Part shown: positions 2,227 through 63,952 of the stretch, one piece after another
Position numbering within the stretch: the stretch's first letter is position 1
Layout of the letters: each line of letters opens with the position of its first letter
Virus record (IMG/VR): IMGVR_UViG_3300037488_003672
Source: an uncultured virus (IMG/VR IMGVR_UViG_3300037488_003672)
Lineage: Duplodnaviria > Heunggongvirae > Uroviricota > Caudoviricetes
DNA length: 64,000 nucleotides
Reading direction: 5' to 3' (one strand)
The notes under the pieces: generated by a model
Databases searched by the model: none
What the model was told of the DNA's origin: nothing
Seen by the model: only the letters and a program-made list of their open reading frames with translations
Position numbers and translations under genes: made by a program

Positions 2227-2374
2227 ATCACGTGAAAAAGACTTTTTTTTCTTCTTTAGCAATATTTATTTACTCAAAAAATATATCGTATTTATGTCGC
2301 ATAAAATTGCAATTTTTCTGACTGGATTATATTTCTTTACGCTGACTTATTTTACCTTTTTCGCAATTCCTCGG

Positions 2375-2725
2375 TTATTTTATTATTATACTTTCGGTTT
2401 TTTTCCCTAAAGAAGATTTTAATAACAATAAACGTTCGATAAACTCTTCATTTTGAGCAATCTGTTTATATACTCTTCCTATTTTCAAAAAGATCTTATA
2501 TCTATGATACTCTTCAATCCAAACGTCAATTGCTTTTTCTAACGATTTAATATTTTCACTATTAAATGCCTTAGATTCAATTATGTCTTCTAAATCAACT
2601 AAAATTTTGTCATACATTTTCTTCTGACGAAGAATAATCAACCAAGACCGATGTTGAATGGTTTCTTGCTTAAATTTTTCAAATAATTCTTTGACAATTA
2701 TCAAATCTGCTTTTCGTATTTGCAT
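2375..2725 (-). CDS. Hypothetical helical protein
   Basis: 116-aa ORF, tandem with 2734..3081. Confidence 0.6.
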   Translation of the reverse strand: MQIRKADLIIVKELFEKFKQETIQHRSWLIILRQKKMYDKILVDLEDIIESKAFNSENIKSLEKAIDVWIEEYHRYKIFLKIGRVYKQIAQNEEFIERLLLLKSSLGKKTESIIIK

Positions 2726-2733
2726 AAATAATC

Positions 2734-3081
2734 TTACTCCTTAAGCTTTTTATTCTTTTTTTTTTTGGGAATCTTCACATTGACTGCACAAATTCTCGCA
2801 AATTCTTGATTTATTAAATGTTTTAATAAATAAATAGGCGTTTTAACTTCAAACTCACGTTGTAAAATAAAAATTCGTTTCAAATATTGAGGAGAAAAGT
2901 GAAAATTCATTGATAAATCCTTATTTTCAAGAACTAAGTCTTTTATCTTCATTTCCCAATAATCTTCCCTACTAATCATTCTCCCCTTATAATAAAAACA
3001 TAATCTTGTTTTTGTTTGCCTTCTTTTAGGTATCTGCGGTTTTTTCTTATTCTTCTTTCTTATTGTCGTCATAAGTCTCAA
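2734..3081 (-). CDS. Small basic hypothetical protein (probable start ATG 3072)
   Basis: Lys/Arg-rich ORF. Confidence 0.55.
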   Translation of the reverse strand: MRLMTTIRKKNKKKPQIPKRRQTKTRLCFYYKGRMISREDYWEMKIKDLVLENKDLSMNFHFSPQYLKRIFILQREFEVKTPIYLLKHLINQEFARICAVNVKIPKKKKNKKLKE

Positions 3082-3374
3082 CTCATTGGAATATGCGTTT
3101 TCATCCGCTTTTTACTCGAAGGAAATCTAAATATTTATCTATTACATAATTAATCTGGATTGAATAATTTAAATTTTTAATTCTTTTGACTATTTTAAAT
3201 TTGACGACTCCAAATTAAAATGAATTGATTCTTATTTTTTAGAACAGTATTATGCAAATGCCCTTTTCTCAAAAAAAAACAAGTAATTTAAAATTCACGT
3301 GGGAAAATAGTTCCAAAATATTTTTAAACTAAAAAAAAGATATAACACATAATCATTTCTATTGAGGATTATTT

Positions 3375-3800
3375 ATGGCAGACTTATCAAAAGGATTAGG
3401 AAGAATCCGTTTTTTAGTTAGTCGAGTAAAAACGATTACTAAAGACAATGTTAAAAAAATAGAAGCAAATAAAAATGAAGACGTGAAGGCAGTTCTCTTA
3501 TATGCAAAAGAACATAAAATTGAGATTATGCCATTGCTCAACTCATTGAAAAAAACAAAAGGCGATATCTCGAAAGAAAAAATGAAAGAACTCGGTTTTG
3601 GCGAAAATGGCAAAAAAGCCGATGGTAAAAAAGCTAAACCCGTTAAAAAATCGGATAGTACAGCATCAAAACTACAAATTTTAGTTCCCACATCTCTTAC
3701 GTGTCCAGATGAAGATAGTTTAGGTAATGAAGTCTTCTTGGTTATCGGAAAAGACGGACTAATGGGTTGCGGAACTATGATGCAAATACCCGCTGATTAA
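3375..3800 (+). CDS. Lys-rich hypothetical protein
   Basis: 141 aa; CACGTG at 3296, tttttaaa TATA-like box, gagg RBS, T-tract after stop. Confidence 0.75.
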   Translation: MADLSKGLGRIRFLVSRVKTITKDNVKKIEANKNEDVKAVLLYAKEHKIEIMPLLNSLKKTKGDISKEKMKELGFGENGKKADGKKAKPVKKSDSTASKLQILVPTSLTCPDEDSLGNEVFLVIGKDGLMGCGTMMQIPAD

Positions 3801-3908
3801 TACAATTTCTTTTTTTCTAATTTTACTAAAATAAATCAACAAAAACATTAATAAAGTTATTATACTAATTTAGAAACAATGAATTAAAATTAGTTATTCA
3901 TGTGAGAA

Positions 3909-5207
3909 ATGAAAAACTCGTTTGGGATAATTATGGGAAATAAACAAATTGTAAAAGCTCGAATTATGGATTCCAATACCATATCCGAATTTACTTCAGC
4001 AGTTAAACCACTCCGAATTAAAAAGAAGGATGGAAAACCTAAAACTGCTAAAACTGAAGTAATCGAAACAGAAAAAGAATCTCAACCACATCAAAAAATA
4101 CAAATAATTCTCTCCGTATTAGGTGTATTGGGAATAATTGGATCACTGATCCTTAGCACAATTGATGCGTTATGGTTTTATATAACCTTAGTAGCAACCA
4201 CTTTAATCTTAGTTGTTGATTTAACGTTATATTTTAAAAATAACACATCCAACCTCACCGAGAACGAAAAATCGTCTATGAAACTTGCACTAAAAGCAAT
4301 GAATCCAGTTGATAAACGCTTAATTAGTCTCATCTTTATTGGAATACTCGCCAGTAGTATTACTTTAATTGTTGCAGAGATGTGTTATGAAATAACTATT
4401 GAAGTCACTATGTGTGTAGTTGCAATTTTAGAATTAACAATAGGAACAACAATTTACGATAGATTAACCGATGCAAAAAAGAACCCCACCAAATATGCTA
4501 ATTTTCATCCAAAATATCATTTAGCACAAGGTATCATTGTTATGATCTTATTCTTCTTCGCAATACCTACATTATGTGGAATTGATTTATTTTCCTATCT
4601 TAATCTTGAATTAGGTTCGTACAGCTCAGTTAATATCACATATAATCTGATTATGACCTTAGTTGCAATGTCGGGAATCATGGGAATTTTACAAATGAAA
4701 AACACTTTTACTGAAGTTGGCGATTATGATAAAACTTCTTTAATCCGATTCTTAGCAATGATCTTATTACCAATTACAGCATTAATGATATTCCCTATTT
4801 CTTCTCAAACAATTGAACAAGGGGTTATCTTAGGAGCTATTGGAGGATTTGATTATTTCAATGGAATTTTATTATCAATTACTCAATCTCCATATACCTT
4901 ATTTTCGATGGTAGTAATTGTCTTGGGTTCTTTAACAATTATTGTTGGAAAAGCTCAAGGAAAATCTGGATCTGGGTTAATGTCAGTCGGAGCTTTAGGA
5001 ATGGCTGGAGTACCTATGATCATCACCGTTATGGCTTTTATTGGACAAGTCCCAGCTCCCCCCGAATTTTATTCATTATTTGGAGAAGGATTTGCAGAAT
5101 TAATTTATGCAATTTCATATACAACGGTTATCAGTCTTGCTCTTGCCTTAGTCGGTGTATTCTATGAAGTAGTTCCTTCAATCGCAAGTGGTAGCATAGA
5201 CGATTAA
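3909..5207 (+). CDS. Multi-pass membrane protein
   Basis: About 10 hydrophobic segments; C-terminal part resembles ORF 7938. Confidence 0.8.
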   Translation: MKNSFGIIMGNKQIVKARIMDSNTISEFTSAVKPLRIKKKDGKPKTAKTEVIETEKESQPHQKIQIILSVLGVLGIIGSLILSTIDALWFYITLVATTLILVVDLTLYFKNNTSNLTENEKSSMKLALKAMNPVDKRLISLIFIGILASSITLIVAEMCYEITIEVTMCVVAILELTIGTTIYDRLTDAKKNPTKYANFHPKYHLAQGIIVMILFFFAIPTLCGIDLFSYLNLELGSYSSVNITYNLIMTLVAMSGIMGILQMKNTFTEVGDYDKTSLIRFLAMILLPITALMIFPISSQTIEQGVILGAIGGFDYFNGILLSITQSPYTLFSMVVIVLGSLTIIVGKAQGKSGSGLMSVGALGMAGVPMIITVMAFIGQVPAPPEFYSLFGEGFAELIYAISYTTVISLALALVGVFYEVVPSIASGSIDD

Positions 5208-5444: not shown

Positions 5445-6893
5445 ATGGCTGAAATATTTGATGAAAACGAAGAAATAATTACCAAAGGCTCTATTTTAAA
5501 CAACAATAAATTTGTTTTCTTTATAATTCTTCTCACATTTTCGGTCTTCTTATTGATAAATGGAATATACGCATTAATTTACACTTGTCTTATCGCTTTA
5601 GTCTCCTTCTTCATTATCATAATTGATAATTCATTAGGAAAAAATAACGAACATCGAATGCCCTTTAGAACAATTTTACTTCTAATTTCATTAATCGCAT
5701 GGTTAATTGTTATTGATTATGAAATAATTATATTATTATTCTTATTCGGAGTTATTATTATATTAATCAAATCACCTCAATTAATGAAAAAATATAAAAT
5801 GCTTATTCCAGTATCATTAATTCTCATTATTTTCTTCATTTCAAATTTACCTTCTAATTCTTTCCCTCAAGCTTTTACTATAACAGATCATCAATATAAT
5901 ATCGCATTTCAAAAATACGATAAACGAACAGAAGATTTTTTTTCTCCATATCCTCTCTATGATGCTACTATCGATAAAACATTTAGAAGTCTTATGTTTA
6001 TTGGAATTAGAACCGATATGATGACTGGCTCTGGCGTTTTCAACTGGGATCAAGCCAATATTACAGTTGATGCGTATTTCAATCAATCGGAATTTCAATG
6101 GAATACCACATTTCGATCCTATTTAGTTTATTATGAAGGATTAGTTGAAGATATGGTAATCGACCAAGAATTAGCTGGATACGAATTACTTGACGAAATT
6201 ATTAAATTAGGAGGCTTAACCGAACATTATTTTATCCATCATTCTAATGATTCAATTCATCTCGAAGCTAATCAAATTCACATGGGAACATATTTACTCG
6301 TATTAGATATATTAATTCTTCCAACTGTAAATAATTCATATCTATATACTGATTTTTCGTTTAAAGATTTTGAAAGTCGTTTATTTTATTCAATAAACAA
6401 TACGTTAAATTATGGAGGAATTGCAGATATAAAGGGATATTCTTATTTAGTTGATTATTTAACTCCTCGAACCGAAGCTGAAAACTTATTTGACGATTTA
6501 CTTGGAAATGATATTTGGAATCTTATGTTATTATTCTTTATTGTGTTTGCCTTCTCTCTTTTTGTATCCATATTAACTCGAAAATTTGATGTTGTAAAAA
6601 CAATTAATTGGATCTTATTATGTGTCTTTATTATTGGTCTTTTTGCAGTGATCGCAACGGGAATGGAATCGGTTCCCGATTGGATTACGATTTTATTTAG
6701 GGAACGGAACGGGGCATATATTTGGGGGATTTTTGAGTCTGTTAAATATTGTCTATCTTTGGGAGTTGTTCTTGGGATTATTTTCGCAATAACGGGATTT
6801 GTTGAAAGCCAATTCAAAATGATCATGGTTCAAACTCAATACAAATCATTAGTTGCACAATTAAATAAATTTACTGATTCACGTGAGAAATGA
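5445..6893 (+). CDS. Membrane protein with large central extracytoplasmic domain
   Basis: N- and C-terminal TM clusters flanking a soluble domain with NxS/T sequons. Confidence 0.8.
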   Translation: MAEIFDENEEIITKGSILNNNKFVFFIILLTFSVFLLINGIYALIYTCLIALVSFFIIIIDNSLGKNNEHRMPFRTILLLISLIAWLIVIDYEIIILLFLFGVIIILIKSPQLMKKYKMLIPVSLILIIFFISNLPSNSFPQAFTITDHQYNIAFQKYDKRTEDFFSPYPLYDATIDKTFRSLMFIGIRTDMMTGSGVFNWDQANITVDAYFNQSEFQWNTTFRSYLVYYEGLVEDMVIDQELAGYELLDEIIKLGGLTEHYFIHHSNDSIHLEANQIHMGTYLLVLDILILPTVNNSYLYTDFSFKDFESRLFYSINNTLNYGGIADIKGYSYLVDYLTPRTEAENLFDDLLGNDIWNLMLLFFIVFAFSLFVSILTRKFDVVKTINWILLCVFIIGLFAVIATGMESVPDWITILFRERNGAYIWGIFESVKYCLSLGVVLGIIFAITGFVESQFKMIMVQTQYKSLVAQLNKFTDSREK

Positions 6894-7885: not shown

Positions 7886-7937
7886 AAATACATATTTTTT
7901 TATTATCAAAAAATAAAGTAATACATAAACCACGTGA

Positions 7938-8716: not shown

Positions 8717-9799
8717 ATGTCAAAACCTAAGAAAAAGATTGAGGAAGAAGAGGAAGAAGAGGAAGAAGAGGAAGAAGAGGAAGAAGAGGAAGAAGAGGAA
8801 GAAGAGGAAGAAGAGGAAGAAAATATTTCTAAAAAACCACATATTGAAAAAATTCAAAAAAAACAATCACAAGACATTGGATATTGGTATATTGAAAGAT
8901 CTACCATCGGATTATTCCTCTTTGCATTAGCTACTTTCTTTATTGCGTTAGCTTATAATCAAATCACTGTGGTTAGAGAATATATTGATTGGAATATTGA
9001 ATTTTTATTGGGAAGCTTAGATGTTAAAATTTTAACATACATTATTCTTGTAATTCCATTTTGCATGATTTGGGTAGTAATAGTCATAAAAATCTTCAAA
9101 GCTCTTTGGTCATCTTTTGAATTAGTTAAAATTCGTATTCTTTTAAAGAAAATTCGTATTAATTTTTCCATCTTTGGAGTCTTAAGTACTTTTATCTTTC
9201 TCTATTTCGATCAACCCTTTCTTTCTTTTTATACAATAGGATTCCCAACATTATTTATTATCTTATTTAATGTTTTCATTGACTATTCTAATCTTGAAGA
9301 AGAAGAAAGGCGTATTATGAAAGAAAATGAAAGTTTAAAGAAAATACCAACCGATTTTACACACTTTCAGATTATTTCTTTAACAGTATTAGGAATCATT
9401 GCAATCTTCTATTTTGGTGATTTAACGGGAGATGCTAACGGTTTTAGTTTAACTCTAAACACTTATTTTGATAAAATTGCTTCCGATAGCATAATGTTGA
9501 TTGTCTTCTGTCTCACATTAGCACTCAGTATCTTTTGGTATGCTTCAGTTTTCATTCTAAATTGTTTTTGGGTTATTTTACGTTCCGCAAAGAAAAGCCT
9601 TCGAACATTTTTCATTCTCATCTATTTAATTGGCTTTTTTTATCTCTTAGTTAAATTAATAATGTTTAATTTGTCAAATTACCTTGAAGAACCATATCCA
9701 ACCCTAATATCAATGACTATGAGTTTGACAAGCATTGGTATTCAACGTAATAGTCAAAAGGTTATTGATTGGTATAATGGATTCGGAAAGAAGAAATAA
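8717..9799 (+). CDS. Multi-pass membrane protein with N-terminal poly-Glu
   Basis: 27 consecutive Glu followed by about 8 TM segments. Confidence 0.8.
   Translation: MSKPKKKIEEEEEEEEEEEEEEEEEEEEEEEEEEENISKKPHIEKIQKKQSQDIGYWYIERSTIGLFLFALATFFIALAYNQITVVREYIDWNIEFLLGSLDVKILTYIILVIPFCMIWVVIVIKIFKALWSSFELVKIRILLKKIRINFSIFGVLSTFIFLYFDQPFLSFYTIGFPTLFIILFNVFIDYSNLEEEERRIMKENESLKKIPTDFTHFQIISLTVLGIIAIFYFGDLTGDANGFSLTLNTYFDKIASDSIMLIVFCLTLALSIFWYASVFILNCFWVILRSAKKSLRTFFILIYLIGFFYLLVKLIMFNLSNYLEEPYPTLISMTMSLTSIGIQRNSQKVIDWYNGFGKKK
8741..8821 (+). repeat. Perfect 9-bp tandem repeat (GAGGAAGAA)x9
   Basis: Read directly; encodes E27. Confidence 0.95.
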
Positions 9800-10326: not shown

Positions 10327-10370
10327 CACGTGAATACTTTATTAAATGAGAAAACCAAATTATAATTATT
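10327..10370 (+). promoter_or_regulatory. Representative promoter: CACGTG motif, BRE-like GAA, TATA-like TTTATTAA, near-leaderless ATG
   Basis: cacgtgaatactttattaaatg...attattATG; same layout at 23826-23871, 29713-29751, 57065-57105, 63908-63952. Confidence 0.6.
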
Positions 10371-11864
10371 ATGAAATTCGTATTCGGAAAATCAAAAAAA
10401 GATGGACTGGCGGATCTTCCTCTCACTAATGATAAAATTAAATTACAAGGAATTCTCGTTAATATTATAGAAGAATATAATTCTCTTAAAAAGGAATTTA
10501 ATGCAAATGATCAAATCGATCTAACTTCTAAAGCCAATGACCTTAAATCAAGATCACTTAAGCACATAAATATGGGAAAACTCCTTTTAGGTTCTGAAAA
10601 AAAAGCACAATTAGAGACCATACAAAATGATATTATTTTTCTAACAACTCTAATTAATGAAAATAATAAATTAAAACAATCAACTCCGATCATAAGCACT
10701 CCATCAACAAGTAGTCCATCAATAACATTTTCGACAAATCCTCCGATCATAAGCACTCCGACTACAATAATTCCTCCAATAACGCAATCTGATCCAAACA
10801 CTCCAAAACCACGAAAAAAAAGAGTTCCAAACACTCCAAACACTCCAAACACTCCAAAACCACGAAAAAAAAGAGTTCCAAAAAATCCAAACACTCCAAA
10901 CACTCCAAACACTCCAAAACCACGAAAAAAAAGAGTTCTTAAGAATCCTCCCCCTATAATTACCAATATTTCGAATGCCCTTCCTTCAAGTCTTAAGTTC
11001 TTAGATATTCCCGATGTTCCTATGGATGAACTCTTATCAAATCATAATGTTAATCATATTCTTTATACCATAAGATATGTGGGAACTGATACAAAAGGAG
11101 ATACAATAGCAACTGATATTTTGGGTTTAGAAAAAGATATTCTAATTGCAATGCTTTATCTTAACCACAGTAAAGGAATGTGTGATCCAGTTCCAATTCT
11201 TAATGATGCTTCAGTAACTTCTTTTGCACAAAATACATGGAATCATGGAAAAATAGTTAGCGTTGGCTCTCATGAAGGTGTAGATCAAGCGTCTTATACA
11301 AAAGCAACTTTAGTTGATGTCTTAATTAATAAATTAAATCATACTGAATTTTTATCTGCCGAAGACAATAGTTTTGGAAAATTACAAGCAAAAATATATC
11401 CTCATCTATATGAATTAATTAAAAAAGGAATTTTATTCGTCTATCTACATAAATATACTTATTTTAATAAACGTACTATGAAAAGTAAGGAACAAACTAA
11501 GAAATTAATCTTTTTTACCCCTCAATTCTTCGAAATGATTCAAAAATTATTATATAGTAACACTTTTAAAATGCCTTCTCCTCTTAAGTTTGCTATATCA
11601 ACTGAGATTGATGAGAATTTAAATAATTTAAATAGTCTATATTTACGTATGGGAGATTTAACTATTCAAAAAGAAATTGTTTCAACGTCAGTCTTTAAAC
11701 CCACAGATAGCCTTAGCGTTTTTGCTACACGATTGCAAAATAGAAGACGATCCGAAGAAGATAAACGAAGAAAAGATACTCAAGATCGAAATGAAGAGAG
11801 AAGAAGAAGAGATAAAAGAAGAGAAGAAGACGAAGAAGATGACGATGACGATACATTTTTTTAA
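10371..11864 (+). CDS. Hypothetical protein: MKFVFG N-terminus, Pro/Thr/basic repeat linker, charged C-tail
   Basis: 497-aa ORF with own promoter. Confidence 0.8.
   Translation: MKFVFGKSKKDGLADLPLTNDKIKLQGILVNIIEEYNSLKKEFNANDQIDLTSKANDLKSRSLKHINMGKLLLGSEKKAQLETIQNDIIFLTTLINENNKLKQSTPIISTPSTSSPSITFSTNPPIISTPTTIIPPITQSDPNTPKPRKKRVPNTPNTPNTPKPRKKRVPKNPNTPNTPNTPKPRKKRVLKNPPPIITNISNALPSSLKFLDIPDVPMDELLSNHNVNHILYTIRYVGTDTKGDTIATDILGLEKDILIAMLYLNHSKGMCDPVPILNDASVTSFAQNTWNHGKIVSVGSHEGVDQASYTKATLVDVLINKLNHTEFLSAEDNSFGKLQAKIYPHLYELIKKGILFVYLHKYTYFNKRTMKSKEQTKKLIFFTPQFFEMIQKLLYSNTFKMPSPLKFAISTEIDENLNNLNSLYLRMGDLTIQKEIVSTSVFKPTDSLSVFATRLQNRRRSEEDKRRKDTQDRNEERRRRDKRREEDEEDDDDDTFF
10794..10937 (+). repeat. 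Nested coding repeats (PNT)n and PKPRKKRV x3
   Basis: ccaaacact units and ccaaaaccacgaaaaaaaagagtt x3. Confidence 0.9.
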
Positions 11865-11905: not shown

Positions 11906-12520
11906 ATTCCGACCTTTGTTTTTATCAAACCTAAAAAACCCAGTAAATTCGTCAAAAGTATTGGCGATGCAGAAGGAGATAAATTAGTTCAATATAATAC
12001 GAAGATTCCAAAAAATACAATCAAGTTTTTAAAGGTTCCCTATGTTCCCAATGGCTTTGAAAATTCTTGCTCTGAATGTAGTGCAGAAATGATTTTGAGA
12101 TATTGGGGAGTAGAAAATTGGTCGCAATTTGAAATTCATCAATATGGATTTCAAACCTTCGAAGGCGGAATCTCTGAAGGCGATTTAGGCTTATTACCAT
12201 TATTTAAACTCGATGATCTCCTAACTAAAAAAAAGGAAAAAATACAATTTCACGTGGAATTAATAACCAATGGAACTATTAACGATTTAAAGAAATGGAT
12301 CGATAATGAAATTCCTCTGATACTTCGATATAATACAAATGATCGAGGTGATATGCACACAGTTGTATTAATTGGATATAATGAAAAAGTATTCTATAAG
12401 CACGATAATGATTTAGGTTCATGTTTGGAAATGGAATACGATTATATGAAGAAACATTGGAAAGGACAAGTTGTGTTAGTCTATCCGATTAATTATTTAA
12501 CCGAAAAGAAGGGAAAATAA
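11906..12520 (+). CDS. C39-like (papain-fold) cysteine peptidase; probable non-ATG start
   Basis: Frame is open from TAA 11900 through VPYVPNGFENSCSECSAEMILRYWG (catalytic Cys region lies upstream of ATG 12089); HTVVLIGY and HD motifs follow. Confidence 0.7.
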   Translation: MPTFVFIKPKKPSKFVKSIGDAEGDKLVQYNTKIPKNTIKFLKVPYVPNGFENSCSECSAEMILRYWGVENWSQFEIHQYGFQTFEGGISEGDLGLLPLFKLDDLLTKKKEKIQFHVELITNGTINDLKKWIDNEIPLILRYNTNDRGDMHTVVLIGYNEKVFYKHDNDLGSCLEMEYDYMKKHWKGQVVLVYPINYLTEKKGK

Positions 12521-13756: not shown

Positions 13757-14794
13757 ATGAAAACAAATTATCACGTGAAAAAAATTATTCTTTTCTCACT
13801 ATCCCTTTACTTTTTCTTCTCTCTTTGTGGAATCGCCTTCAATAATCCATCCGATTCTTCTTCCATAACTCCACTTGAAATTAAAGCAAGTTCTATTCAC
13901 AATCTTGGTTCTTATTCCGAAGCTCAATTCATTACTATTTATATCAATACATCTGACATTACAATGGATGAAATCCCATATTCATTAACTACTGAAAATC
14001 GAGTTAAATGTTCCTTTAATATTACTTATCCTACCACGAATAACACATGGAAATTCATACTTCCCTCCATCTATTATGATGCAACGAATTACTATATTAA
14101 AAGATCCTCAACTGATTTTAATTATTGCTTGGAAGACGAAAACGCTTCGGCTCTTATTCGTTATACGGGAGAAGATTCATATTGGATAATAGATGGCAAT
14201 CCATCGATAACCGATATAATTAATTTTGAGATTTTAACTCCTCTTGTTGATTTAAATGAACTTCAAGATGAAACTACTCTTAATAAAACAACTTTTGAAC
14301 TAAATATTTATCGAACCGATCTTACACGTCATTCTTATAATAATCTTCACTTTACCCATAATTTTAATGTATTTTATGAAAACTATGAAATTCAAGTTTT
14401 TAATTATACGGGAGGAATTAATGAAAATATAACTGATACAGTGGAAATCACATCTTCAATTACATTAAAAAATGGCGGATATGTTATATTTTTCGATATT
14501 AATTTAGGTTATATTCAAAAAGCAACCGATTATAAGTTTAAAATCGTTTTCTTAAAAGTTGCCTTACCTCCAAGTTTTTCTACTGCATTATTTGCAAATA
14601 TCATATTACCTCTCTTGGCGGGATTTTTTACTGGCTTATTAGCGAGTCCTTATGTTTTAAAATTATTTAAGATTCAAATGAATACTCGTAAAACGAAAGA
14701 TTTATTCAAAAAAGGTTCTCCAGTCGGAATCGTATTTGCATTACTCTTCTTAGGAATTAATTATTTAATTTATACGTTTAAAATCTTCGGATGA
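13757..14794 (+). CDS. Exported, membrane-anchored protein; paralog of the C-terminus of ORF 57106
   Basis: N-terminal signal/TM, beta-rich domain with NxS/T sequons, two C-terminal TMs. Confidence 0.8.
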   Translation: MKTNYHVKKIILFSLSLYFFFSLCGIAFNNPSDSSSITPLEIKASSIHNLGSYSEAQFITIYINTSDITMDEIPYSLTTENRVKCSFNITYPTTNNTWKFILPSIYYDATNYYIKRSSTDFNYCLEDENASALIRYTGEDSYWIIDGNPSITDIINFEILTPLVDLNELQDETTLNKTTFELNIYRTDLTRHSYNNLHFTHNFNVFYENYEIQVFNYTGGINENITDTVEITSSITLKNGGYVIFFDINLGYIQKATDYKFKIVFLKVALPPSFSTALFANIILPLLAGFFTGLLASPYVLKLFKIQMNTRKTKDLFKKGSPVGIVFALLFLGINYLIYTFKIFG

Positions 14795-54435: not shown

Positions 54436-54476
54436 TCTTTTTTTAACGGAATATCGGAATAACGGAGAGTTTGCTT

Positions 54477-55583
54477 ATGGGTTTAACAACTTTGAAAGAT
54501 AACGCAGAATTTTTTGACGATCCGCTTATGCGAGAATTAATTACAGATGGAAATGATGGACTTGATCATATCCCAGAGAACCAACAAGAAGGATTCTTCG
54601 AAGCGTCAAAAAGTTTTGCTATGCAATTACAACAATTACATGATCTAAAACCTTTTGATAAAAAACGATGGAAAAAAAGAGCTTATCGAGGAGGCTTATT
54701 CGATGTGGATGACATTATCGATATGACCTTATTGACGGGAGTTAAAACCTTACGAGAGCGAAAAAAAATGCGAGTAAATCCCGACAAACCAAGAGTTTGT
54801 CTTCTTGTTGATGTCTCAAGTTCAATGGATACGAGTTCTGTAAAAAGAGCAACAATACTTTTAGGCATTGCCTTTATTGAATTATTTGGCGAAAACTTTG
54901 CCGAAAGCGTGAGTTATGGCACGATTGGAGGATCGGTTTGCCGATATTTCTCGAAAGACGAATGTAAAACAATTCAACGAGAAATTCTTAAAACAAGATT
55001 TAATACGGATACCCATTTTAGTCCCGTTCTTCAAGAAATGGAGACACAAGGCTTTTATGATACACGAATCACGAAATATATTTTTCTAATAACCGATGGT
55101 ACTCCAGAAATACATGGATCAAATATCACTGTCTCTGCATCTGGAGGTCTTCCCCCTCATATCCCAGCTCAAACCCTTAAAGATATGGAGACTACCATTG
55201 ATTATATTACAAATCGATGGAAAAACGATGATCGAGTCGAATATTTTTGGATTCAATTGGGAACTAATGTTGATTTTCTCAAGTGGGTTATTAGCATGGG
55301 TTATTGTCCGAGTAATTCAACCGAATGCCCTTGGATGACAAAAGATCAATGGAATATGTTTATTAACGATCCATTGTATTCCTATTATTTAAACCAATCC
55401 AATATAAACGCTCAAAATCTCGGTACTATTCGGTACGCATGGCATCTTTGGTCTAAATTCTGTTTAGAACAATATGCCCGAGGAGATATGTTTTATATGA
55501 CTGTCAATGACATGAAAAACAATGGTATTCATACAATGATGGATTATTTCAAAGTTAAGTTCTTACGAAAGATCAAAGCCTAA
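54477..55583 (+). CDS. vWA-domain protein (paralog 1)
   Basis: MIDAS LLVDVSSSM, FLITDG. Confidence 0.8.
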   Translation: MGLTTLKDNAEFFDDPLMRELITDGNDGLDHIPENQQEGFFEASKSFAMQLQQLHDLKPFDKKRWKKRAYRGGLFDVDDIIDMTLLTGVKTLRERKKMRVNPDKPRVCLLVDVSSSMDTSSVKRATILLGIAFIELFGENFAESVSYGTIGGSVCRYFSKDECKTIQREILKTRFNTDTHFSPVLQEMETQGFYDTRITKYIFLITDGTPEIHGSNITVSASGGLPPHIPAQTLKDMETTIDYITNRWKNDDRVEYFWIQLGTNVDFLKWVISMGYCPSNSTECPWMTKDQWNMFINDPLYSYYLNQSNINAQNLGTIRYAWHLWSKFCLEQYARGDMFYMTVNDMKNNGIHTMMDYFKVKFLRKIKA

Positions 55584-55654
55584 GCCAAGATTCTTTTTTT
55601 CACGTGAAAAAGATTTTTATTGAAAACAATCATAAATATATTGAAGGAAAAAAT

Positions 55655-56773
55655 ATGACTATGAACATAACATTCAAGGATGGTGAATTTTTTGACGATC
55701 CCCTTATGCAAGACTTAATTACCGATGAAGCGGGATCAGCCTTAACCACGCCTACACAACTTAAACAAGCTCTTCGAGATGGATTCCTCGAAGCATCAAA
55801 AAGTTTTGCAATGCAATTACAACAAATGCACGATCTTAAACCATTTGATAAAAAAAAATGGAAAAAAAGAACCTATCGAGGAGGCTTATTCGATGTGGAT
55901 GACATTATCGATATGACCTTATTGACGGGAGTTAAAACCTTACGAGAACGGAAAAAAATGCGAATAAATCCCGACAAACCACGTGTAGCATTACTCTTAG
56001 ATGTGTCATATTCAATGCATCGAAGTAAAGTAAAACGAGCGTCTCTCCTCTTGGGAATCGCTTTAACCGAATTATTAGGAGAAGGGTTTGCTGAAAGTTT
56101 GAGTTATGGAACAATTGGGGGAACAGTATGCGAATATCGATCCAGAGAAGATTTTAAAAACATACAACGCAGAATTCTGACTGCTGATTTTTGTGAAGGA
56201 TCTACCAATTTCTCTCCCGTTCTTGACGAGATGGAAGCTCAAGATTTCTATAATACTCGAATTACGAAATATATTTTTCTCATAACTGACGGTGTACCAG
56301 AAAATCATGGAGTTTCTATTCAACATGCATCACAAGGAATACTCCCCTATAATCCATCAGCTTCGTTAAAAGATATAGAGATCACGATTGATTATATAAC
56401 AAATCGATGGCGAAATGATGATCGGGTAGAATATTTTTGGATTCAAATAGGAAAAGTACCCACTTTTTTAGAATGGGTTTGCCTTTTTAATTATTGTCCC
56501 ATAGTTCGAACCGAATGTCCTTGGATCAAAGAAGATGAATGGAATATTTGGGTTGCAAGTAGTGATTATGCTGATAAATTACAAAAGTCTAATTTAGTTT
56601 TAGCTCAAGGAACTGGAGAACATTATAATTATCGCTTATGGGTTAAATTTTGCTTGGATCAATATGCTCAAGGGGATATGTTTTACATGACCGTTGATGA
56701 TCTTAAAAAGAATGGGATTCATTCATTAGTCGATTATTTCAAACTTAAATTTCAAAAGAAGATACAAATATGA
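55655..56773 (+). CDS. vWA-domain protein (paralog 2)
   Basis: LLLDVSYSM, FLITDG; ATG 55655 after gaagga preferred over GTG 55604, which lies inside the motif. Confidence 0.8.
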   Translation: MTMNITFKDGEFFDDPLMQDLITDEAGSALTTPTQLKQALRDGFLEASKSFAMQLQQMHDLKPFDKKKWKKRTYRGGLFDVDDIIDMTLLTGVKTLRERKKMRINPDKPRVALLLDVSYSMHRSKVKRASLLLGIALTELLGEGFAESLSYGTIGGTVCEYRSREDFKNIQRRILTADFCEGSTNFSPVLDEMEAQDFYNTRITKYIFLITDGVPENHGVSIQHASQGILPYNPSASLKDIEITIDYITNRWRNDDRVEYFWIQIGKVPTFLEWVCLFNYCPIVRTECPWIKEDEWNIWVASSDYADKLQKSNLVLAQGTGEHYNYRLWVKFCLDQYAQGDMFYMTVDDLKKNGIHSLVDYFKLKFQKKIQI

Positions 56774-57042: not shown

Positions 57043-57105
57043 TTTTTTTCAAAACTATCTTTTCCACGTGAAACATTTTAATTAGATTTAGATTATATTA
57101 TAATT

Positions 57106-60100
57106 ATGAAAAAAAAAGTCTCGATTTTGATTCTTAGTATTCTTATGAATCTTTCTTTTCTATTCTCTTGTCTCTATATTAACAATAGCATGTCTATTGA
57201 ATCTCCAATTACCGAATCTCCTATTCAAACACTTCCCAATTCAACGCCAGACTCTAATCAATATATCGAATATCCTAATATTGAAGGTCATCAAGTCGAA
57301 TCGTCTTATACTGGGGAAAGTGGGGATGTGGTTCGAAAAATCTCTCAAACGACATCTGATACTCATTTATCTCCTCAACAATATCGAGTTAGTCAATACA
57401 CTAATCGATATTCGGATCGAAATGTTGGCGGAGATATTGTTTATGATGCAAACGGATTAGAGATTAGTTCTGTTTATGGAACCGAATTAGATAATGTAAA
57501 TACTAATTTAGATACAAAAAATGATGGTAAGACTGATATTATTTCTTCAAGTAATCAATATCAAAGAAAGGGATTAATATCAACCTTAGCAAGTTCAGAT
57601 GGTTATATGAGTTTAGATTCTATTGAATCTAAATATGGATCAGTTACACTTGCAAATTTAGATGACGGAGAAAAACCGCTGTTAACTGTGATTGGATTAC
57701 CTAGTACTATTCCAGATTATTATCCTAAGATTGATTTTACGGTTCCTCCTTACGATGAACATACTCCCAGAACATTCTTGTTTGAAAATCTATATAATCA
57801 GCGATCTCCATATACTTTATATGGGGTAACAACTTCGGAAGCATCAAATCTATTTAATCCTTATGTTTCGGCTCTACTAGCTGATAAAGGTTCTTCTTCA
57901 AGTTTTGATCATAAATATACTGGAAATCTGGGTTTTGATGATCTATGTCTTGGTTGGTGGGGAGCTTTATTGGGAATCAATGAACCAAGTGGTTCTTTTG
58001 TTATGTCAAAACCTAATGATTTTTCTGGAAGTGAATATGCATTTGGGAGTGATTATTTAAACGTCAAATACAATTGGGTAGCCCCATCTTCTCCCTATTA
58101 TACTTTTGTTTTTAAAGCTCGGGTTTATACTCAAGCTGAATCTACATTCAAATCATGGGAAAATATATATCATGATGACTATTATACATTAACTTTGGAA
58201 TATAATGACGGATCTACACCATATTCCATTACCAATCCAATTCGAGAAGAAGAAAATATTTTATCAAATGAAAGATTGAAAATTGATCGATTTGAAACTA
58301 TTGAATTAGCATATCCAGAGTCTCAAAATTATCGAATAAATAATCTAAAATCAGTACAATATTCCTTTTCAATTGATCCTTATGTTCATCGAACTGAAGA
58401 ATTTGGGGAACGAGATACAACGGGATGTTGGGGATTTATTGTATTGGATTATTTAGAAACATTCATAGTACGAGATGGGGGATATATGTCCACTGTCCTT
58501 TATGAGATAGAAACCCCATTTCTTCAAACATCCAACCCTACACAAGGAATCGATTTTAAAACCATGTCTACAACTCCCAATATCCAGATCGAATCAATTA
58601 GTTTATCAATAAAAGCAACCATGACTTCTCAAGAAGAAAGTTCTCGAACAATTTCATTTATGTCTCCTAAGTTTATAACAATAAATGGTAAATGGACTAC
58701 GAATCACTTTAGAATTGATCAATATGCAGAAACTATATTATATAATATTCCAATAAACGAATGTAATTTAGATAAAACATTTACGTGGACAACTCGATCA
58801 CAAATAAATTCATTTTTAAATTATATTATTCACGATGAAGGAAATCCGTACCAAGATGGAGGTTTTTATTATACAAATAATTCTCGAATTGCACTTATGA
58901 TCACATCTTCATCGCCTTTTGGAGATCTGAGCAATACTGCAATGACTATTGACTATCTTCATTTTAGCATTACTTACTCTGATCATCTCGATCAACAAAC
59001 GTCAAATTATCGTTATCTTTTGGATACGGACTCAACTAATCCAATTTCTTTTCAAGAAACATTTCCAATAAAGACACTTGCGGGAAATACGCCAAAATCG
59101 ATTACAATTTATGGAAATCCGTCTGATTGGAATCTCTATAAATATACCTATATCAGCAATGGTATATTAAAAGAGTCATCAAGTTCTCCTTTAAGCATAA
59201 CCGATCAACTTATTCCAGATTTAATATATACCAATATACGAGCAATTACTTTTAATGGCTTAACCGATCAATCCAATTTTACTCTATTTTTTTCGGGAGG
59301 TAATTATTGGAAAAATCAAAATATTTCATACTCACGTGAAGTTTCATATGGTAATAGTATGAAAACAACAATATCACGAAATAATTTTGAATTTTTACAT
59401 GGTGATAACATTAAGATCGATTGTGAAGTATTCCCAGCTCCTTCTAATTTTTATTCCTTTCTTGGAGAAGGAATAGTGGTTGCATATTTTATCGATAAAG
59501 ACGATAATATTGTTTATTCTCAACAAATAACAAGAACCAAACCAACAGAATTTAACTCAACAATTAATCTTGGAATTAGTAATTTTAATACACACAATCC
59601 TTATCGCTATTTTGAATATAATACAACATATAGCATATTTTTCACGTTTATTAATTCACAAGAGATAACCAAAGCGGGATACTATTATTGGGATAATGCT
59701 TTTACAATTAAACCGAATAAAATCTCAGATCCGACCTATTCCTTTGATAGTGATTTTATTTATTATTCTTTTAATGTGAGTGCAAAGGGTAACTATTCTG
59801 CAATGGTTGTTTCTCAAAACGTTAAAAGTACTAACTATATTGGAGAAACTCAAAAATACCCAATTGGCATGTATTCAAATAACATTAATCTCACGAACGT
59901 ATATATTGATAATCAATATATAAAGGGGATTAATACCTTTACAAATCTCCCAAATACAAATATTATTTTTGAATTTGAAAACCTTGGATTAACTGCTCAA
60001 AATATAATTATTGACGATATGAGAATAGTTCCCTATTTTTACCGAGAAAATACGTTTCAAAACTACACCTATCGTAATGCAACAACTTTCTCTTTAGAAA

Positions 60101-61599
60101 TTGGTGAAACCAAAAACATTTCCTTCTATCATAATTATTATAATTATAATTCAACTATTTCAAGAGGGATATTTACTCCCTATATTCAGTTCCATGAAGA
60201 ATTTCAACCCACTAATCAAAGTTATATGAATTGTACTCTATTTAGTGAATCGGACATTACCAATTATGGAAAAATCTACAATTATACCATTTTTGAAAAT
60301 CTAACTGGATCTGCATATTTACAAGGAAATTTCACCAAGAATATCGAGAGTTCAAAACTTTCTTGTTATATTATGGATGAATTTGGACAAGGTAATTCTC
60401 CGATGTGGGATATTTCATCTGGATATTATTTTGGGAATCAATATACACCTACAATTGAAATTTTATCTCCCGATCAAGGAGAAGAATTTTCCACATCATA
60501 TATTCCCTTAAATTTGCGAGTGAATGATCCAAATAGTGATTTAGATAAAGTATATGTTCGATATTCTTCAGATATGATCGATTCGGAATATTATTTAATG
60601 AATACTACATCTACATTTTATCCAAAATGGTATTATCAACTATTGAATCCGTTTGAATTAGCAACGGGAATGATCACATTTAACGTGATGGCGTATGATT
60701 TGAATGAAAATTATATGTATCAAACTTTCTATATCTCTGTTATCTCATATAAGCAAATATCTTTAGAAAATGAAAATATCAGCATCGGAAAAGTGAATAT
60801 TTATCCGTCAGCAACTTATATTCCATGTTCCGTTTTCGTGAATTATAGTCAATATTATGCAGATCCTATTAGTACTTATTTCTTTGATTTAGGAAGCAAT
60901 TATACGGATGCTCGAAACTATAAAATTCAGAGATCGCCTATCAATATTTATTATGCGATTAAAAGTTCAAGGGAAGGAATCTCAGATGTGGGCAGATATT
61001 CATATTGGAATTTTGCTGAAACAACAGAAATAGACAAAGTTCAATTTGCGTTAAATGCCCCTATTTCAACCATTACTGCGGATATTGAAAACACAATCGC
61101 TCTTCAACAAAAAGTCTATGATATTCGTTTAAAACGTCATACTAATATTCGAACTTATTCGCAACCCTCGATTATTTTCTCTATCGATCAACCTTTCAAT
61201 AATCTCTTAATTAAAATCTATGATACAACGGGAGGAGAAAATTATTCAATTACCGATTCTTGCAACTTGCAATATGGTCTAATTGGATCTGAAGGTAATT
61301 TTATAATCAATTTTACCATTGAAGAAGTCTTGGAAAATGTGGATTATGCGTTTAAAATTTTTATCTATAATATCGTCACATATCAAGATCTTATCGAAGA
61401 AGCGAGAAATGCCAACATGATTATTGGAGTATTACTTTTTGGTTCTATTGCAATCTCTATTCGCATATTAGTTTCATACAAAGGAGGACAATATGCAATT
61501 CGAGAAAAAAACATGAAAAAAGAATTAGGTATTTATGGAGGTATTGGAGCTGTAGTTGGACTTCTTTTTGGGTACTTTGTCGGGTTTAGCTGGTGGTAA
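57106..61599 (+). CDS. 1497-aa exported multi-domain surface protein with two C-terminal TMs
   Basis: Signal/TM, S/T/N/Y-rich beta domains, Ig-like PTIEILSP...V.D..SD segment. Confidence 0.85.
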   Translation: MKKKVSILILSILMNLSFLFSCLYINNSMSIESPITESPIQTLPNSTPDSNQYIEYPNIEGHQVESSYTGESGDVVRKISQTTSDTHLSPQQYRVSQYTNRYSDRNVGGDIVYDANGLEISSVYGTELDNVNTNLDTKNDGKTDIISSSNQYQRKGLISTLASSDGYMSLDSIESKYGSVTLANLDDGEKPLLTVIGLPSTIPDYYPKIDFTVPPYDEHTPRTFLFENLYNQRSPYTLYGVTTSEASNLFNPYVSALLADKGSSSSFDHKYTGNLGFDDLCLGWWGALLGINEPSGSFVMSKPNDFSGSEYAFGSDYLNVKYNWVAPSSPYYTFVFKARVYTQAESTFKSWENIYHDDYYTLTLEYNDGSTPYSITNPIREEENILSNERLKIDRFETIELAYPESQNYRINNLKSVQYSFSIDPYVHRTEEFGERDTTGCWGFIVLDYLETFIVRDGGYMSTVLYEIETPFLQTSNPTQGIDFKTMSTTPNIQIESISLSIKATMTSQEESSRTISFMSPKFITINGKWTTNHFRIDQYAETILYNIPINECNLDKTFTWTTRSQINSFLNYIIHDEGNPYQDGGFYYTNNSRIALMITSSSPFGDLSNTAMTIDYLHFSITYSDHLDQQTSNYRYLLDTDSTNPISFQETFPIKTLAGNTPKSITIYGNPSDWNLYKYTYISNGILKESSSSPLSITDQLIPDLIYTNIRAITFNGLTDQSNFTLFFSGGNYWKNQNISYSREVSYGNSMKTTISRNNFEFLHGDNIKIDCEVFPAPSNFYSFLGEGIVVAYFIDKDDNIVYSQQITRTKPTEFNSTINLGISNFNTHNPYRYFEYNTTYSIFFTFINSQEITKAGYYYWDNAFTIKPNKISDPTYSFDSDFIYYSFNVSAKGNYSAMVVSQNVKSTNYIGETQKYPIGMYSNNINLTNVYIDNQYIKGINTFTNLPNTNIIFEFENLGLTAQNIIIDDMRIVPYFYRENTFQNYTYRNATTFSLEIGETKNISFYHNYYNYNSTISRGIFTPYIQFHEEFQPTNQSYMNCTLFSESDITNYGKIYNYTIFENLTGSAYLQGNFTKNIESSKLSCYIMDEFGQGNSPMWDISSGYYFGNQYTPTIEILSPDQGEEFSTSYIPLNLRVNDPNSDLDKVYVRYSSDMIDSEYYLMNTTSTFYPKWYYQLLNPFELATGMITFNVMAYDLNENYMYQTFYISVISYKQISLENENISIGKVNIYPSATYIPCSVFVNYSQYYADPISTYFFDLGSNYTDARNYKIQRSPINIYYAIKSSREGISDVGRYSYWNFAETTEIDKVQFALNAPISTITADIENTIALQQKVYDIRLKRHTNIRTYSQPSIIFSIDQPFNNLLIKIYDTTGGENYSITDSCNLQYGLIGSEGNFIINFTIEEVLENVDYAFKIFIYNIVTYQDLIEEARNANMIIGVLLFGSIAISIRILVSYKGGQYAIREKNMKKELGIYGGIGAVVGLLFGYFVGFSWW

Positions 61600-62052: not shown

Positions 62053-62200
62053 ATTCTTCACACAAATACACAAGAATATAAAGATTATTTTTCGAAAAAT
62101 CCAAAAAATAACCATTCACGTGAAAGTATTCTTTTTATGAAATTTGGATCTTAAAAAACCATTATACCCTAACTTTAAATAACTTGCCTACAAAATATTA

Positions 62201-62755
62201 TTGATCAATATGATCTCAAATCAGATCTTATTTTTAGATTTTGATGGAGTTTTCGTACCGAATTTGTTTCGTACAAAAAACAAAAACATCAATACTGCGA
62301 ACATTTCTTCCGAAGAGTTCGCCAAAACGGTTCAAATCTATGATCAAATCTCCCGTTTCTTTTTGAACTTCTTTGATTTTCTGCAAGGACTCTTCCCGAA
62401 CGCATACACACTCATTCTGACGGGAAGAAAAGAATCTCTTTTAGGGGATTTTACAAGAGAATTGTTAAGAAAAGCTAACATCGTCGATAAAATTAATGAA
62501 ATCGCTTTTTATCCCGAAGATAAATCCTATCAGCAAGATGTTTATTTTGATTGGAAAACTTGCTACATTCGAGGTATAATGGATAAGTTTAAAAAAGCGA
62601 AAGCAATCGTGCTTGACGATGACTTAGCCTTATTAAAAGAACTTCGTCATAATACAACGCTTCCTCAGCGTCAATTAAAATTTTTATTCTTTGAAGTCAG
62701 TGAAATCCCAACTTATACATACTTTTGGGTTGAATCATATTCTTTTTTCACGTGA
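62201..62755 (+). CDS. HAD-superfamily phosphatase
   Basis: DFDGV, LTGR, K and LDDD motifs; stop TGA overlaps a CACGTGA copy. Confidence 0.8.
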   Translation: MINMISNQILFLDFDGVFVPNLFRTKNKNINTANISSEEFAKTVQIYDQISRFFLNFFDFLQGLFPNAYTLILTGRKESLLGDFTRELLRKANIVDKINEIAFYPEDKSYQQDVYFDWKTCYIRGIMDKFKKAKAIVLDDDLALLKELRHNTTLPQRQLKFLFFEVSEIPTYTYFWVESYSFFT

Positions 62756-62823
62756 TTTTTTATGGTTTTATTATTTTCACATTTGAACAATACATTTAAA
62801 TAGATCTAATACATTAAAATAAT

Positions 62824-63075
62824 ATGGATACACATATTGTGATGAAGGATACTGAAAAACTAAAAGTAAAAGTGATTTTTTCTAATGAATTTACGACTAT
62901 TTTAAAAGTTGAAAAATTAAATATTAAATTTTTAGCTTCAAAAAGAGATATAAATCAAAATATTGTCGAAATTTCCGTTTGGCTCTTCAATAATTGGGTT
63001 CCTCTTCAAATCTCAATCAATCGAACTTTAGATGATCTGAGTACAGTTATTCAAATGTTTATTGATAATTTTTAA
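62824..63075 (+). CDS. Small hypothetical protein
   Basis: tttaaa box about 25 bp upstream. Confidence 0.6.
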   Translation: MDTHIVMKDTEKLKVKVIFSNEFTTILKVEKLNIKFLASKRDINQNIVEISVWLFNNWVPLQISINRTLDDLSTVIQMFIDNF

Positions 63076-63087
63076 GGAAGTGATCAA

Positions 63088-63594
63088 ATGAGTCAAATTA
63101 ATGTTGCTTCTCGATCTGAGATGATCGACAAAGCTTTAAACGAAGAGAAAACGCTTCTCGAAATCAATCGAGAATTACGTTCTCTCAATATGAAACCCCT
63201 TTCCAAAAAGCAATTTACACAAAAGCTCTCAACAATCAAAAAGAAGGGGAATTATGAAATCGAATATACTCAAAAATTTGCGGGAAAATTTGATAATAAA
63301 ACCTTTTCTCTAAAAAAATATGGCGTTAAAAACTGCGTCAAAGAATGGTTCGAGTTGAAATTGTTGATTGATAAATGTTATCGCATCTCTGAAATGATGG
63401 ATGCTCGAATTAAACCCATTCCACTTCTGAAAACACAATTACACACTGCAACTGTGTCTCAAAACGATCACGCAATCCTTTTAATTCAAACTGAAATTGA
63501 TCGCTTAATTCGAGAATATGATGCGTTAAGTTCGCAACTCAACGCTTTAACTGATAATTATGCAATTAATGAATTAATTGAACCGAGCAATTAA
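63088..63594 (+). CDS. Hypothetical protein
   Basis: 168 aa, aagga RBS. Confidence 0.7.
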   Translation: MSQINVASRSEMIDKALNEEKTLLEINRELRSLNMKPLSKKQFTQKLSTIKKKGNYEIEYTQKFAGKFDNKTFSLKKYGVKNCVKEWFELKLLIDKCYRISEMMDARIKPIPLLKTQLHTATVSQNDHAILLIQTEIDRLIREYDALSSQLNALTDNYAINELIEPSN

Positions 63595-63648
63595 AAATAT
63601 GAACAAATCAACATCAAAAAAACTTCCTTCACTCGATTTTTTCTTTCT

Positions 63649-63894
63649 TTATGGTAATGAATGAACAAACGAAAGAAGCGTTTTAAATTGCTTTGGCTTG
63701 GCTTCTCTTTTACAATTGGAACAAACACTTTCTTCATCGCAACAGTTAACACAAGTAAAATTGTTGCATTTCTTGCAGATCGAACATTCATAATATCCTT
63801 CTTCTTGATCATCGTTGATTTCAATGTGTTTTTTGCACACAATACACACAATTTCAATCTCGTCAGTCATAGTCTCGATCCTCAAAGCTTTCAA
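63649..63894 (-). CDS. Cys-rich Zn-finger protein
   Basis: CIVC, CSICKKC, CVNC, CSNC. Confidence 0.65.
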   Translation of the reverse strand: MKALRIETMTDEIEIVCIVCKKHIEINDDQEEGYYECSICKKCNNFTCVNCCDEESVCSNCKREAKPKQFKTLLSFVHSLP

Positions 63895-63952
63895 TCATTA
63901 TAAATTTCACGTGGTAAATGTTTTTAAATATTTAAAACAATTAAATATTAAT

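Follow-up and report, generated by a model that had tools for sequence, protein, structure and literature searches.

Introduction

A link between gene regulation and genome architecture is known for a few bacterial plasmids and phages, and our literature search found no archaeal example. Among the described systems that come closest to the one reported here, the archaeal activators Ptr2 and TFB-RF1 bind just upstream of the B recognition element (BRE), and SvtR is an example of a viral regulator of the ribbon-helix-helix (RHH) or winged helix-turn-helix type. The early promoter motif of mimivirus, AAAATTGA, is an element-specific "private" motif, and the promoter/stem-loop (PeSL) cassettes of T4-type phages mediate module shuffling. 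Plasmid RK2 carries 12 OB sites. KorB, a clamp of the ParB family, binds such palindromic sites and represses promoters up to 1.5 kb away (PMC11790492). Here we analysed a stretch of 64,000 nucleotides (hereafter, the window) from the record of an uncultured virus (IMG/VR IMGVR_UViG_3300037488_003672), which is part of a 119,250-bp contig and in which the palindrome CACGTG (hereafter, the core) recurs largely at gene boundaries. With moderate confidence, we read the core as an element-wide, dyad-symmetric upstream site of archaeal promoters that would be recognised by one dimeric factor and that secondarily serves as a joint for module shuffling.

Literature searches for CACGTG with archaeal promoters, for CACGTG in an Asgard or archaeal-virus context and for Asgard promoter motifs gave nothing relevant among the matches listed, and the available main text of a paper on Asgard mobile elements (PMC11529989) mentions neither palindromes nor promoters.

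Results

Enrichment and form of the CACGTG palindrome

The window contained 43 exact copies of CACGTG at the positions given in the original prediction, and the excess claimed there was confirmed (1.9-5 expected). Dinucleotide shuffles (n = 100) held 1.9 copies on average and 5 at most, with none of the 100 reaching 43, and the single-strand expectations under Markov models of order 1, 2 and 3 were 2.1, 2.6 and 5.0, respectively. CACGTG was the top-ranked 6-mer under each of them, so the enrichment persists against di- and trinucleotide backgrounds. It still ranked first at order 4 (86 occurrences on both strands vs 51.9 expected), where the excess is smaller because the 5-mers CACGT and ACGTG derive mostly from the CACGTG sites themselves. 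Overall, the over-representation was 9- to 20-fold in a window with a flat G+C content, measured at 28-32% where 27% had been estimated.

The flanks of the core were partly conserved, with T at position -1 in 34 of the 43 sites and A at position +6 in 36. The extended word TCACGTGA was detected at 28 sites, TTCACGTGAA at 14 and TTTCACGTGAAA at five, which makes the earlier description of the site as usually TT(T/C)CACGTGAAA too strong. A perfect palindrome of at least 8 bp was found at 28 of the 43 cores, and the one at 23821-23836 is perfect over 16 bp, as had been noticed before. Two clear one-base variants, CGCGTG at 44363 and CACATG at 51476, occupy homologous positions in promoters. Only 8-12 bp are common to the copies and the flanks are unique bar a few recent duplicates, which does not match a repeat of the repetitive extragenic palindrome (REP) or miniature inverted-repeat transposable element (MITE) kind.

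The remaining 63 six-base palindromes were depleted in the whole window (1032 observed vs 1490 expected), for example TCTAGA (0 vs 18), GGATCC (0 vs 9) and CATATG (1 vs 15), and this avoidance suggests heavy restriction pressure on the element. Because other six-base palindromes are avoided, CACGTG appears as a lone, deliberate exception. The core is an exact palindrome like a restriction-modification target, yet it is strongly over-represented while the others are depleted, so the avoidance of such a target is not seen. TCCGGA, CGATCG, CTATAG and CCATGG also had zero copies in the window, whereas the GATC count was high (315); a Dam-like methylase is encoded at 37369-37896.

The core could alternatively be the target of a DNA methyltransferase, one of the two encoded in the window or one of the host, and act as an epigenetic or self-recognition mark. 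Its exactness with almost no degeneracy, the two methylase genes lying among the cores and the avoidance of other restriction-type palindromes are consistent with such a mark. However, the best models for the window methylases (N6_N4 type at 34690-35565 on the minus strand, and the Dam-like protein) are adenine methylases (YhdJ/CcrM-like and Dam-like), and a mark would leave unexplained both the exclusion zone before gene starts and the junction gradient described below; we consider this explanation very unlikely. We also hold it to be very improbable that the motif is host-wide (a regulatory, uptake or highly iterated palindrome) and equally dense there, with the element resembling its host.

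Archaeal-type promoters and the position of the cores

Boxes resembling TTTAWAWA peaked sharply 21-30 nt before the start codon in 48 genes without a Shine-Dalgarno (SD) sequence, at 0.52 per gene in those 10 nt, whereas no such box was found in the same interval in 19 genes with an SD sequence. When aligned by their starts, the SD-less promoters read aAaC-ATTTAWAT, as is characteristic of archaeal BRE/TATA promoters whose messages are leaderless, and operon-internal genes were preceded by SD sequences of the GGAG/GGGA type. The best named homologues of two proteins came from Freyarchaeota (40% identity over 30% of the query) and Lokiarchaeota (32%, 96%), both Asgard metagenome-assembled genomes (MAGs). 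Given these homologues and the TATA box about 27 nt before the starts of SD-less genes, the element is probably an archaeal mobile element or virus; the homologues are a weak hint that the host is possibly an Asgard archaeon. An origin from a eukaryotic virus was rejected on the SD sequences before operon-internal genes, and a sigma-70 promoter reading was rejected on a by-eye check of four promoters.

The cores were mostly located at gene boundaries. Their density was 15 times higher between open reading frames (ORFs; 29 in 7,755 nt) than inside them (14 in 56,245 nt; binomial P = 4e-17), and with 29 of 43 not wholly within an ORF and 32 of 43 at most 20 nt from a gene junction, the "about three quarters" previously assigned to boundaries holds. 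The presence of a core followed the junction type: 8 of 9 divergent gaps (the ninth has the CGCGTG variant), 17 of 27 tandem gaps of at least 40 nt, 3 of 22 tandem gaps shorter than 40 nt, and 3 of 9 convergent junctions, among them those at 2229 and 15892 that had been pointed out earlier.

Relative to gene starts, 23 genes had a core 39-92 nt upstream (median 68) and none had one at 16-38 nt; all 14 tandem-gap cores were at least 39 nt from the start (P = 2e-4 under uniform placement). The core promoter itself is therefore left free by the cores. Only 2 of the 23 genes with an upstream core had an SD sequence, compared with 16 of the 44 others (Fisher P = 0.02), as fits the first genes of transcription units, and a core heads 20 of the 29 SD-less promoters listed. 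Minus-strand genes showed identical flanks in reverse, T6-CACGTG-RATTTTWAT.

The core directly abutted the BRE/TATA at four promoters only (29713, 57065, 10327 and 23826) and lay up to about 50 nt farther upstream elsewhere. Such variable spacing to the TATA box argues for an upstream factor site and not for a part of the BRE/TATA core promoter, and a symmetric T-CACGTG-A lying outside the core promoter, at least 39 nt from starts, is what an archaeal operator or upstream activating sequence looks like. A fixed extension of the BRE (about -33 to -38) was tried and rejected, as core-to-start distances vary from 39 to 92 nt and adjacent TATA boxes are not enriched. All cores and the two variants are given below, with the strand where one is assigned.

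2229-2234: convergent junction, 3 nt past the stop of 1450-2226
3296-3301: divergent gap, 79 nt ahead of start 3375
6880-6885: in the final 14 nt of 5445-6893 and 10 nt ahead of the overlapping start 6890; not promoter-like
7931-7936: tandem gap, 46 nt past a stop; true start of the next gene uncertain
10327-10332, plus strand: 44 nt ahead of start 10371; abuts the BRE/TATA of a leaderless-type promoter
12251-12256: deep within ORF 12089-12520
13772-13777: 15 nt into ORF 13757-14794 at a divergent junction; no promoter fits
14846-14851, plus strand: 80 nt ahead of start 14926
15892-15897: convergent junction, in the final 12 nt of 14926-15903
17499-17504: divergent gap
18237-18242: deep within ORF 18152-20062, the first of three there
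18796-18801: deep within ORF 18152-20062
19922-19927: within ORF 18152-20062, 134 nt from the end of the minus-strand block 20056-20780
20867-20872: divergent gap, 68 nt to 20935 and 92 nt to 20780
22486-22491: deep within ORF 21627-22739
23826-23831, plus strand: 46 nt ahead of start 23872; centre of the perfect 16-bp palindrome
26265-26270: 14-nt tandem gap; the GTG of the core is the predicted start 26268; not promoter-like
27677-27682, plus strand: 21 nt past a stop, 100 nt ahead of the small ORF 27777-28010
28307-28312: deep within ORF 28219-28737
29713-29718, plus strand: 39 nt ahead of start 29752, the closest case
31031-31036, plus strand: 49 nt ahead of TTG 31080 and 70 nt ahead of ATG 31101
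31866-31871: deep within ORF 31080-32705, in an insertion relative to its paralogues
33183-33188: divergent gap, 52 nt to 33235 and 86 nt to 33102
34576-34581: convergent gap, within copy A of repeat D19
35821-35826: joins repeat D12 copy A on its left to D19 copy B on its right
35917-35922, plus strand: 83 nt ahead of start 36000, within D19 copy B
36996-37001, plus strand: 77 nt ahead of start 37073; D12 copy B (98% identical) ends 1 nt later
37909-37914, plus strand: 62 nt ahead of start 37971
38935-38940, minus strand: 72 nt ahead of the minus-strand start 38868, with the plus-strand promoter flanks in reverse
41072-41077: divergent gap, 76 nt to 41001
42027-42032, plus strand: 80 nt ahead of ATG 42107 (RHH gene)
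43808-43813, minus strand: 72 nt ahead of the minus-strand start 43741
44363-44368: CGCGTG variant, at the place homologous to the 46160 and 47649 promoters, in the sole divergent gap with no exact core
46160-46165, plus strand: 64 nt ahead of start 46224; homology to 47649 starts 1 nt earlier
47649-47654, plus strand: 64 nt ahead of start 47713
50168-50173, plus strand: 58 nt ahead of start 50226
51476-51481, plus strand: CACATG variant upstream of 51532, in a context resembling 50168
53529-53534: deep within ORF 51532-54435
55601-55606, plus strand: 18 nt past a stop, 54 nt ahead of the likely start ATG 55655
55980-55985: deep within ORF 55604-56773
57065-57070, plus strand: 41 nt ahead of start 57106, in the order core, AAAC, TATA-like box and, about 23 nt on, ATG
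59333-59338: middle of the 1497-aa ORF 57106-61599
62117-62122: divergent gap, 84 nt to 62201
62749-62754, plus strand: overlaps the stop of 62201-62755, 75 nt ahead of start 62824
63908-63913: past the last ORF, at the window end

Spacing of the cores and points against a promoter site

The cores were spaced by 1469 nt on average (minimum 96, maximum 3584), matching the predicted mean of about 1.5 kb and maximum of about 3.6 kb. The regularity that had been proposed was also found: the coefficient of variation (CV) of the spacing was 0.51, whereas random positions gave 0.97 and random subsets of gene starts 0.90, and none of 10,000 simulations reached the observed value (P < 1e-4). Even spacing, together with in-gene cores that fall in long gaps, partly supports placement at regular intervals beyond what promoters impose.

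Several observations weigh against an upstream promoter site. About 16 of the 43 cores are upstream of no start (10 deep in genes, three convergent, and those at 6880, 26265 and 13772), and the 10 deep in ORFs, which occupy all three reading frames in a by-eye reading of the sequence, compare with 1.9-4.4 expected. In-gene cores fall within the longest gaps by a CV test (P = 0.003; max-gap test, P = 0.11), and promoters alone predict neither the in-gene enrichment nor the even spacing. A TATA-like box beside the core was not enriched (9 of 43 on each side vs 14.7% in the control), and helical phasing of the core-to-start distances was looked for and rejected, with no signal. Sites of transcription factors are usually more degenerate than this nearly invariant core, of which there are essentially no degenerate copies; allowing two mismatches, TTCACGTGAA gave 74 matches, and the 35 with no intact core compare with 39 matches expected by chance.

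Comparison with parS, KorB and E-boxes

The original prediction had likened the array to bacterial parS. The sequence at 57060-57075, TTTTCCACGTGAAACA, indeed matches the T/C-degenerate parS at 15 of 16 positions and the T form at 14 of 16, and no site does better; the full 16-mer TGTTNCACGTGAAACA was found at none of the 43 sites. The outer positions that define parS (G2 and C15) were also missing, with G at -4 in one of the 43 sites and C at +9 in three. For contrast, true parS clusters in AT-rich Bacilli, Mollicutes and related MAGs hold 5-9 copies of the full TGTTTCACGTGAAACA, 50-570 bp apart and mostly 100-200. A scan of genome contigs with the pattern AAAAATAA-N4-TCACGTGAA gave, among the matches listed, mostly bacterial loci, several of them parS clusters, and no Asgard genome; literature matches to TTCACGTGAA were, among those listed, mainly parS/ParB papers.

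The search for a ParB- or bHLH-like (basic helix-loop-helix) protein, suggested along with the array, found no ParB, ParA, SMC or bHLH family in the 68 window ORFs (Pfam, PHROGs and NCBIfam), and a re-scan of 22 small or otherwise unexplained window ORFs at E <= 1 found no ParB, ParA, HLH or basic leucine zipper (bZIP) family. The parS/ParABS reading is not supported, given the missing 16-mer and outer G/C, the dispersal every ~1.5 kb and the lack of ParAB among the window ORFs; sharing its hexamer core with parS does not make a site evidence for ParABS. What stands of the earlier interpretation is a symmetric site suited to a dimeric protein with an element-wide role, for which global regulation fits best. 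A eukaryotic E-box bound by bHLH proteins (or a bZIP G-box) has only the hexamer in common with the core, and no HLH or bZIP family occurs in the window ORFs.

A dual system of the KorB/ParB kind would explain the array differently: a clamp or bridge protein, encoded on the other 55 kb of the contig or by the host, would load at the evenly spaced palindromes, partition or compact the element and silence promoters. The cores are spaced more evenly than expected by chance or from subsets of gene starts, those inside genes occupy long gaps, and cores at convergent junctions and inside genes add to a pattern of the KorB/OB operator type (23 genes with a core 39-92 nt upstream, 10 in-gene cores and three convergent). 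The central 12 bp are the inside of parS, the element encodes several very basic repeat proteins, and KorB of RK2 is described (PMC11790492) as acting from its OB sites on promoters up to 1.5 kb away. On the other hand, the ParB, ParA and SMC families and the outer parS positions are missing from the window, the max-gap test for in-gene cores was not significant, and a purely structural array would need neither the core-free 38 nt ahead of starts nor the junction gradient. Taken together, we consider a KorB-like system unlikely.

Cores as recombination joints

Recent duplications start or stop exactly at cores, so that these also act as recombination joints. Two of the repeats are as follows.

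35604-35827, plus strand: repeat D12 copy A, 224 nt, 98% identical to 36779-37002 (copy B); ends at a core
34501-34589, plus strand: repeat D19 copy A, 89 nt, 99% identical to 35842-35930 (copy B); the copies flank the methylase gene 34690-35565

Similarity between the D12 copies is lost entirely 1 nt past the core. The D19 repeat ends 5-8 nt past a core (in copy B, the core at 35917), and copy B starts right after the core at 35821. With D12 copy A on its left and D19 copy B on its right, the core at 35821 is the joint of two unrelated homology blocks. A third repeat, D13, comprises a promoter and gene (46159 and 47648) and starts 1 nt before a core. The promoter and first codons of the 46224/47713 family are also duplicated ahead of an unrelated CrtI-like gene (44425-46005). 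The region 34400-37100 is a hot spot of recent rearrangement, in which the 224-nt repeat copies the 3' end of gene 36359-36871 and adjoins the N6_N4 methylase.

Of the nine minus-strand blocks, four are bounded by cores on both sides (2229/3296, 15892/17499, 19922/20867 and 34576/35821). Inversion between two palindromic cores would yield cores at both ends of a block and would account for the cores at convergent junctions. Strain variants, seen in contigs of four sediment runs with thin and fragmentary cover, differ by whole cassettes; one variant joins 33890 to 37015, and the variant breakpoints lie 19-27 nt from cores.

These joints raise the alternative that recombination is the primary role, in which a site-specific recombinase or nuclease would cross over or cut at CACGTG to shuffle and invert gene cassettes, the association with promoters being secondary. 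The blocks D12, D13 and D19 that start or stop at cores, the minus-strand blocks cored at both ends and the variants that differ by whole cassettes would all fit this. However, no more than four to five joints came to light, the window ORFs included no recognisable recombinase or nuclease, and the variant breakpoints are near cores and not at them. Crossover at the sole common microhomology, combined with selection for intact genes, would also give the same picture. We find a primary role in recombination quite improbable, and favour an upstream promoter site that was secondarily used as a joint.

Candidate binding proteins

Two window proteins are leads only as binders of CACGTG, on the strength of family and structure-model matches.

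42107-42463, plus strand: candidate binder, RHH protein, weakly CdrS/aCcr1-like (Pfam RHH_8, E = 1.7e-4; NCBIfam CdrS, E = 1.3e-4)
33734-33997, plus strand: candidate binder, 87-aa winged-helix protein; its Atlas structure matches are the winged helices of Fur, DeoR, IclR and DprA, with template modelling (TM) scores of 0.66-0.72

The AlphaFold model of the RHH protein had a predicted local distance difference test (pLDDT) score of 43.5, with only its beta-alpha-alpha order usable, and that of ORF 37971-38267 scored 51.2; both models were too poor for a fold search. The N-terminal 200 residues of ORF 18152-20062 had no named match in the Atlas.

Gene content and relatives of the element

Almost all of the 68 ORFs are on the plus strand and few had a family match. 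Matches included the two DNA methylases, a DEDD exonuclease, a MoxR-like AAA ATPase, a CrtI-like oxidase, a CAAX-protease-like protein, a glycosyltransferase and the weak RHH protein. No tRNA and no Rfam family were found in the window. The MoxR-like AAA_5 ATPase (23872-26253) occurs with two 63%-identical paralogues (54471-55583 and 55604-56773) that have a DxSxS motif and look like von Willebrand factor A (vWA) proteins by eye, with no Pfam match. A second paralogous family (31080-32705, 46224-47621 and 47713-48963) starts with MV(K/Q)F(E/K)FN(Q/K)DG and has long Lys/Ser/Thr/Pro-rich repeats that resemble histone H1/HC2 tails.

Many in-frame tandem repeats, perfect or nearly so, also occur within genes, their periods being 9, 15, 21, 51-60, 57 and 114 nt (at 1-126, 8741-8821, 10793-10938, 26597-26969, 31888-32135, 46724-46879 and 48166-48314), a trait reported for the Borg elements of archaea. 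In gaps left by the 80-aa ORF list there are small plus-strand ORFs of 50-77 aa, several with CxxC zinc ribbons (27777-28010, 28034-28213, 30861-31025, 39932-40084 and 40204-40368).

Matching DNA occurs in sediment metagenomes. No relatives were found in viral contigs with the AAA ATPase, the vWA-like paralogue and the methylase as queries, in phage records with the 1497-aa protein, or in a metagenome contig scan with the paralogue alignment, and a search with a promoter-type DNA pattern gave two chance matches only. Among 5.8 billion proteins, the tested paralogue pair matched only its own contig and a 99% copy on a 67-kb contig. The CrtI-like oxidase has a distant homologue (24% identity) on a 119,220-bp contig, possibly a related element.

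Discussion

In the mechanism that we propose, the element would use ordinary archaeal BRE/TATA promoters with mostly leaderless messages, and T-CACGTG-A(A) would be a symmetric site lying 0-50 nt ahead of the BRE/TATA in most transcription units. The core would be bound by a dimeric DNA-binding protein, of either element or host origin, that would switch the units on or off together. Activation or recruitment seems more likely than repression because of the upstream position of the core. Cores would also have become points of module duplication and exchange, and probably of inversion, given that the same 8-10 bp stand at nearly every unit boundary.

Should one factor recognise the core, the 119-kb archaeal element would have about two thirds of its promoters in a single regulon with an easily testable operator. 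Gene control would thereby become accessible in a lineage that may have an Asgard host and whose proteins are nearly without known relatives. The even spacing, in-gene copies and joints suggest that CACGTG also shapes genome architecture and modular evolution. In the boldest version, an E-box-like palindrome would organise a whole giant Asgard-type element, with one element-encoded dimer that switches nearly all units, anchors compaction or partition as KorB and ParB do in bacteria, and defines the cassette joints. No archaeal element is known to have been described with such an organisation, and we hold this version to be decidedly doubtful.

Compared with the described systems, the likeness to the bacterial parS/ParB (Spo0J) system lies in the identical central 10-12 bp, TTCACGTGAA; parS sites are clustered, whereas the cores are spread across a window that has no ParAB genes. 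KorB-OB of the IncP plasmid RK2 is similar in its scattered palindromic operator with promoter-proximal and distal copies and global control. KorB is a bacterial CTPase of the ParB family, whereas none is encoded in this window, the sites are denser (43 per 64 kb) and transcription is archaeal. The T4-type PeSL cassettes likewise place short regulatory sequences at gene boundaries that coincide with the ends of duplicated or exchanged modules, but the 6-10 bp common to the cores are too short for ordinary homologous recombination and the host is archaeal. The mimivirus motif is also a short, exact and over-represented word 40-100 nt upstream of many starts; the word here is a palindrome, lies upstream of a normal host-type BRE/TATA and is also found at gene ends and recombination joints. 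The sites of archaeal upstream factors (Ptr2, TFB-RF1 and SvtR) resemble the core as short dyad sites upstream of the BRE/TATA, with leaderless messages and, here, RHH and winged-helix candidates nearby. Those factors have small regulons, whereas the core stands at most units of 64 kb, is invariant, varies in its spacing to the TATA box and has extra copies inside genes and at convergent junctions. The unusual parts of this element are the palindromic core, its invariance, its even spacing and the joints.

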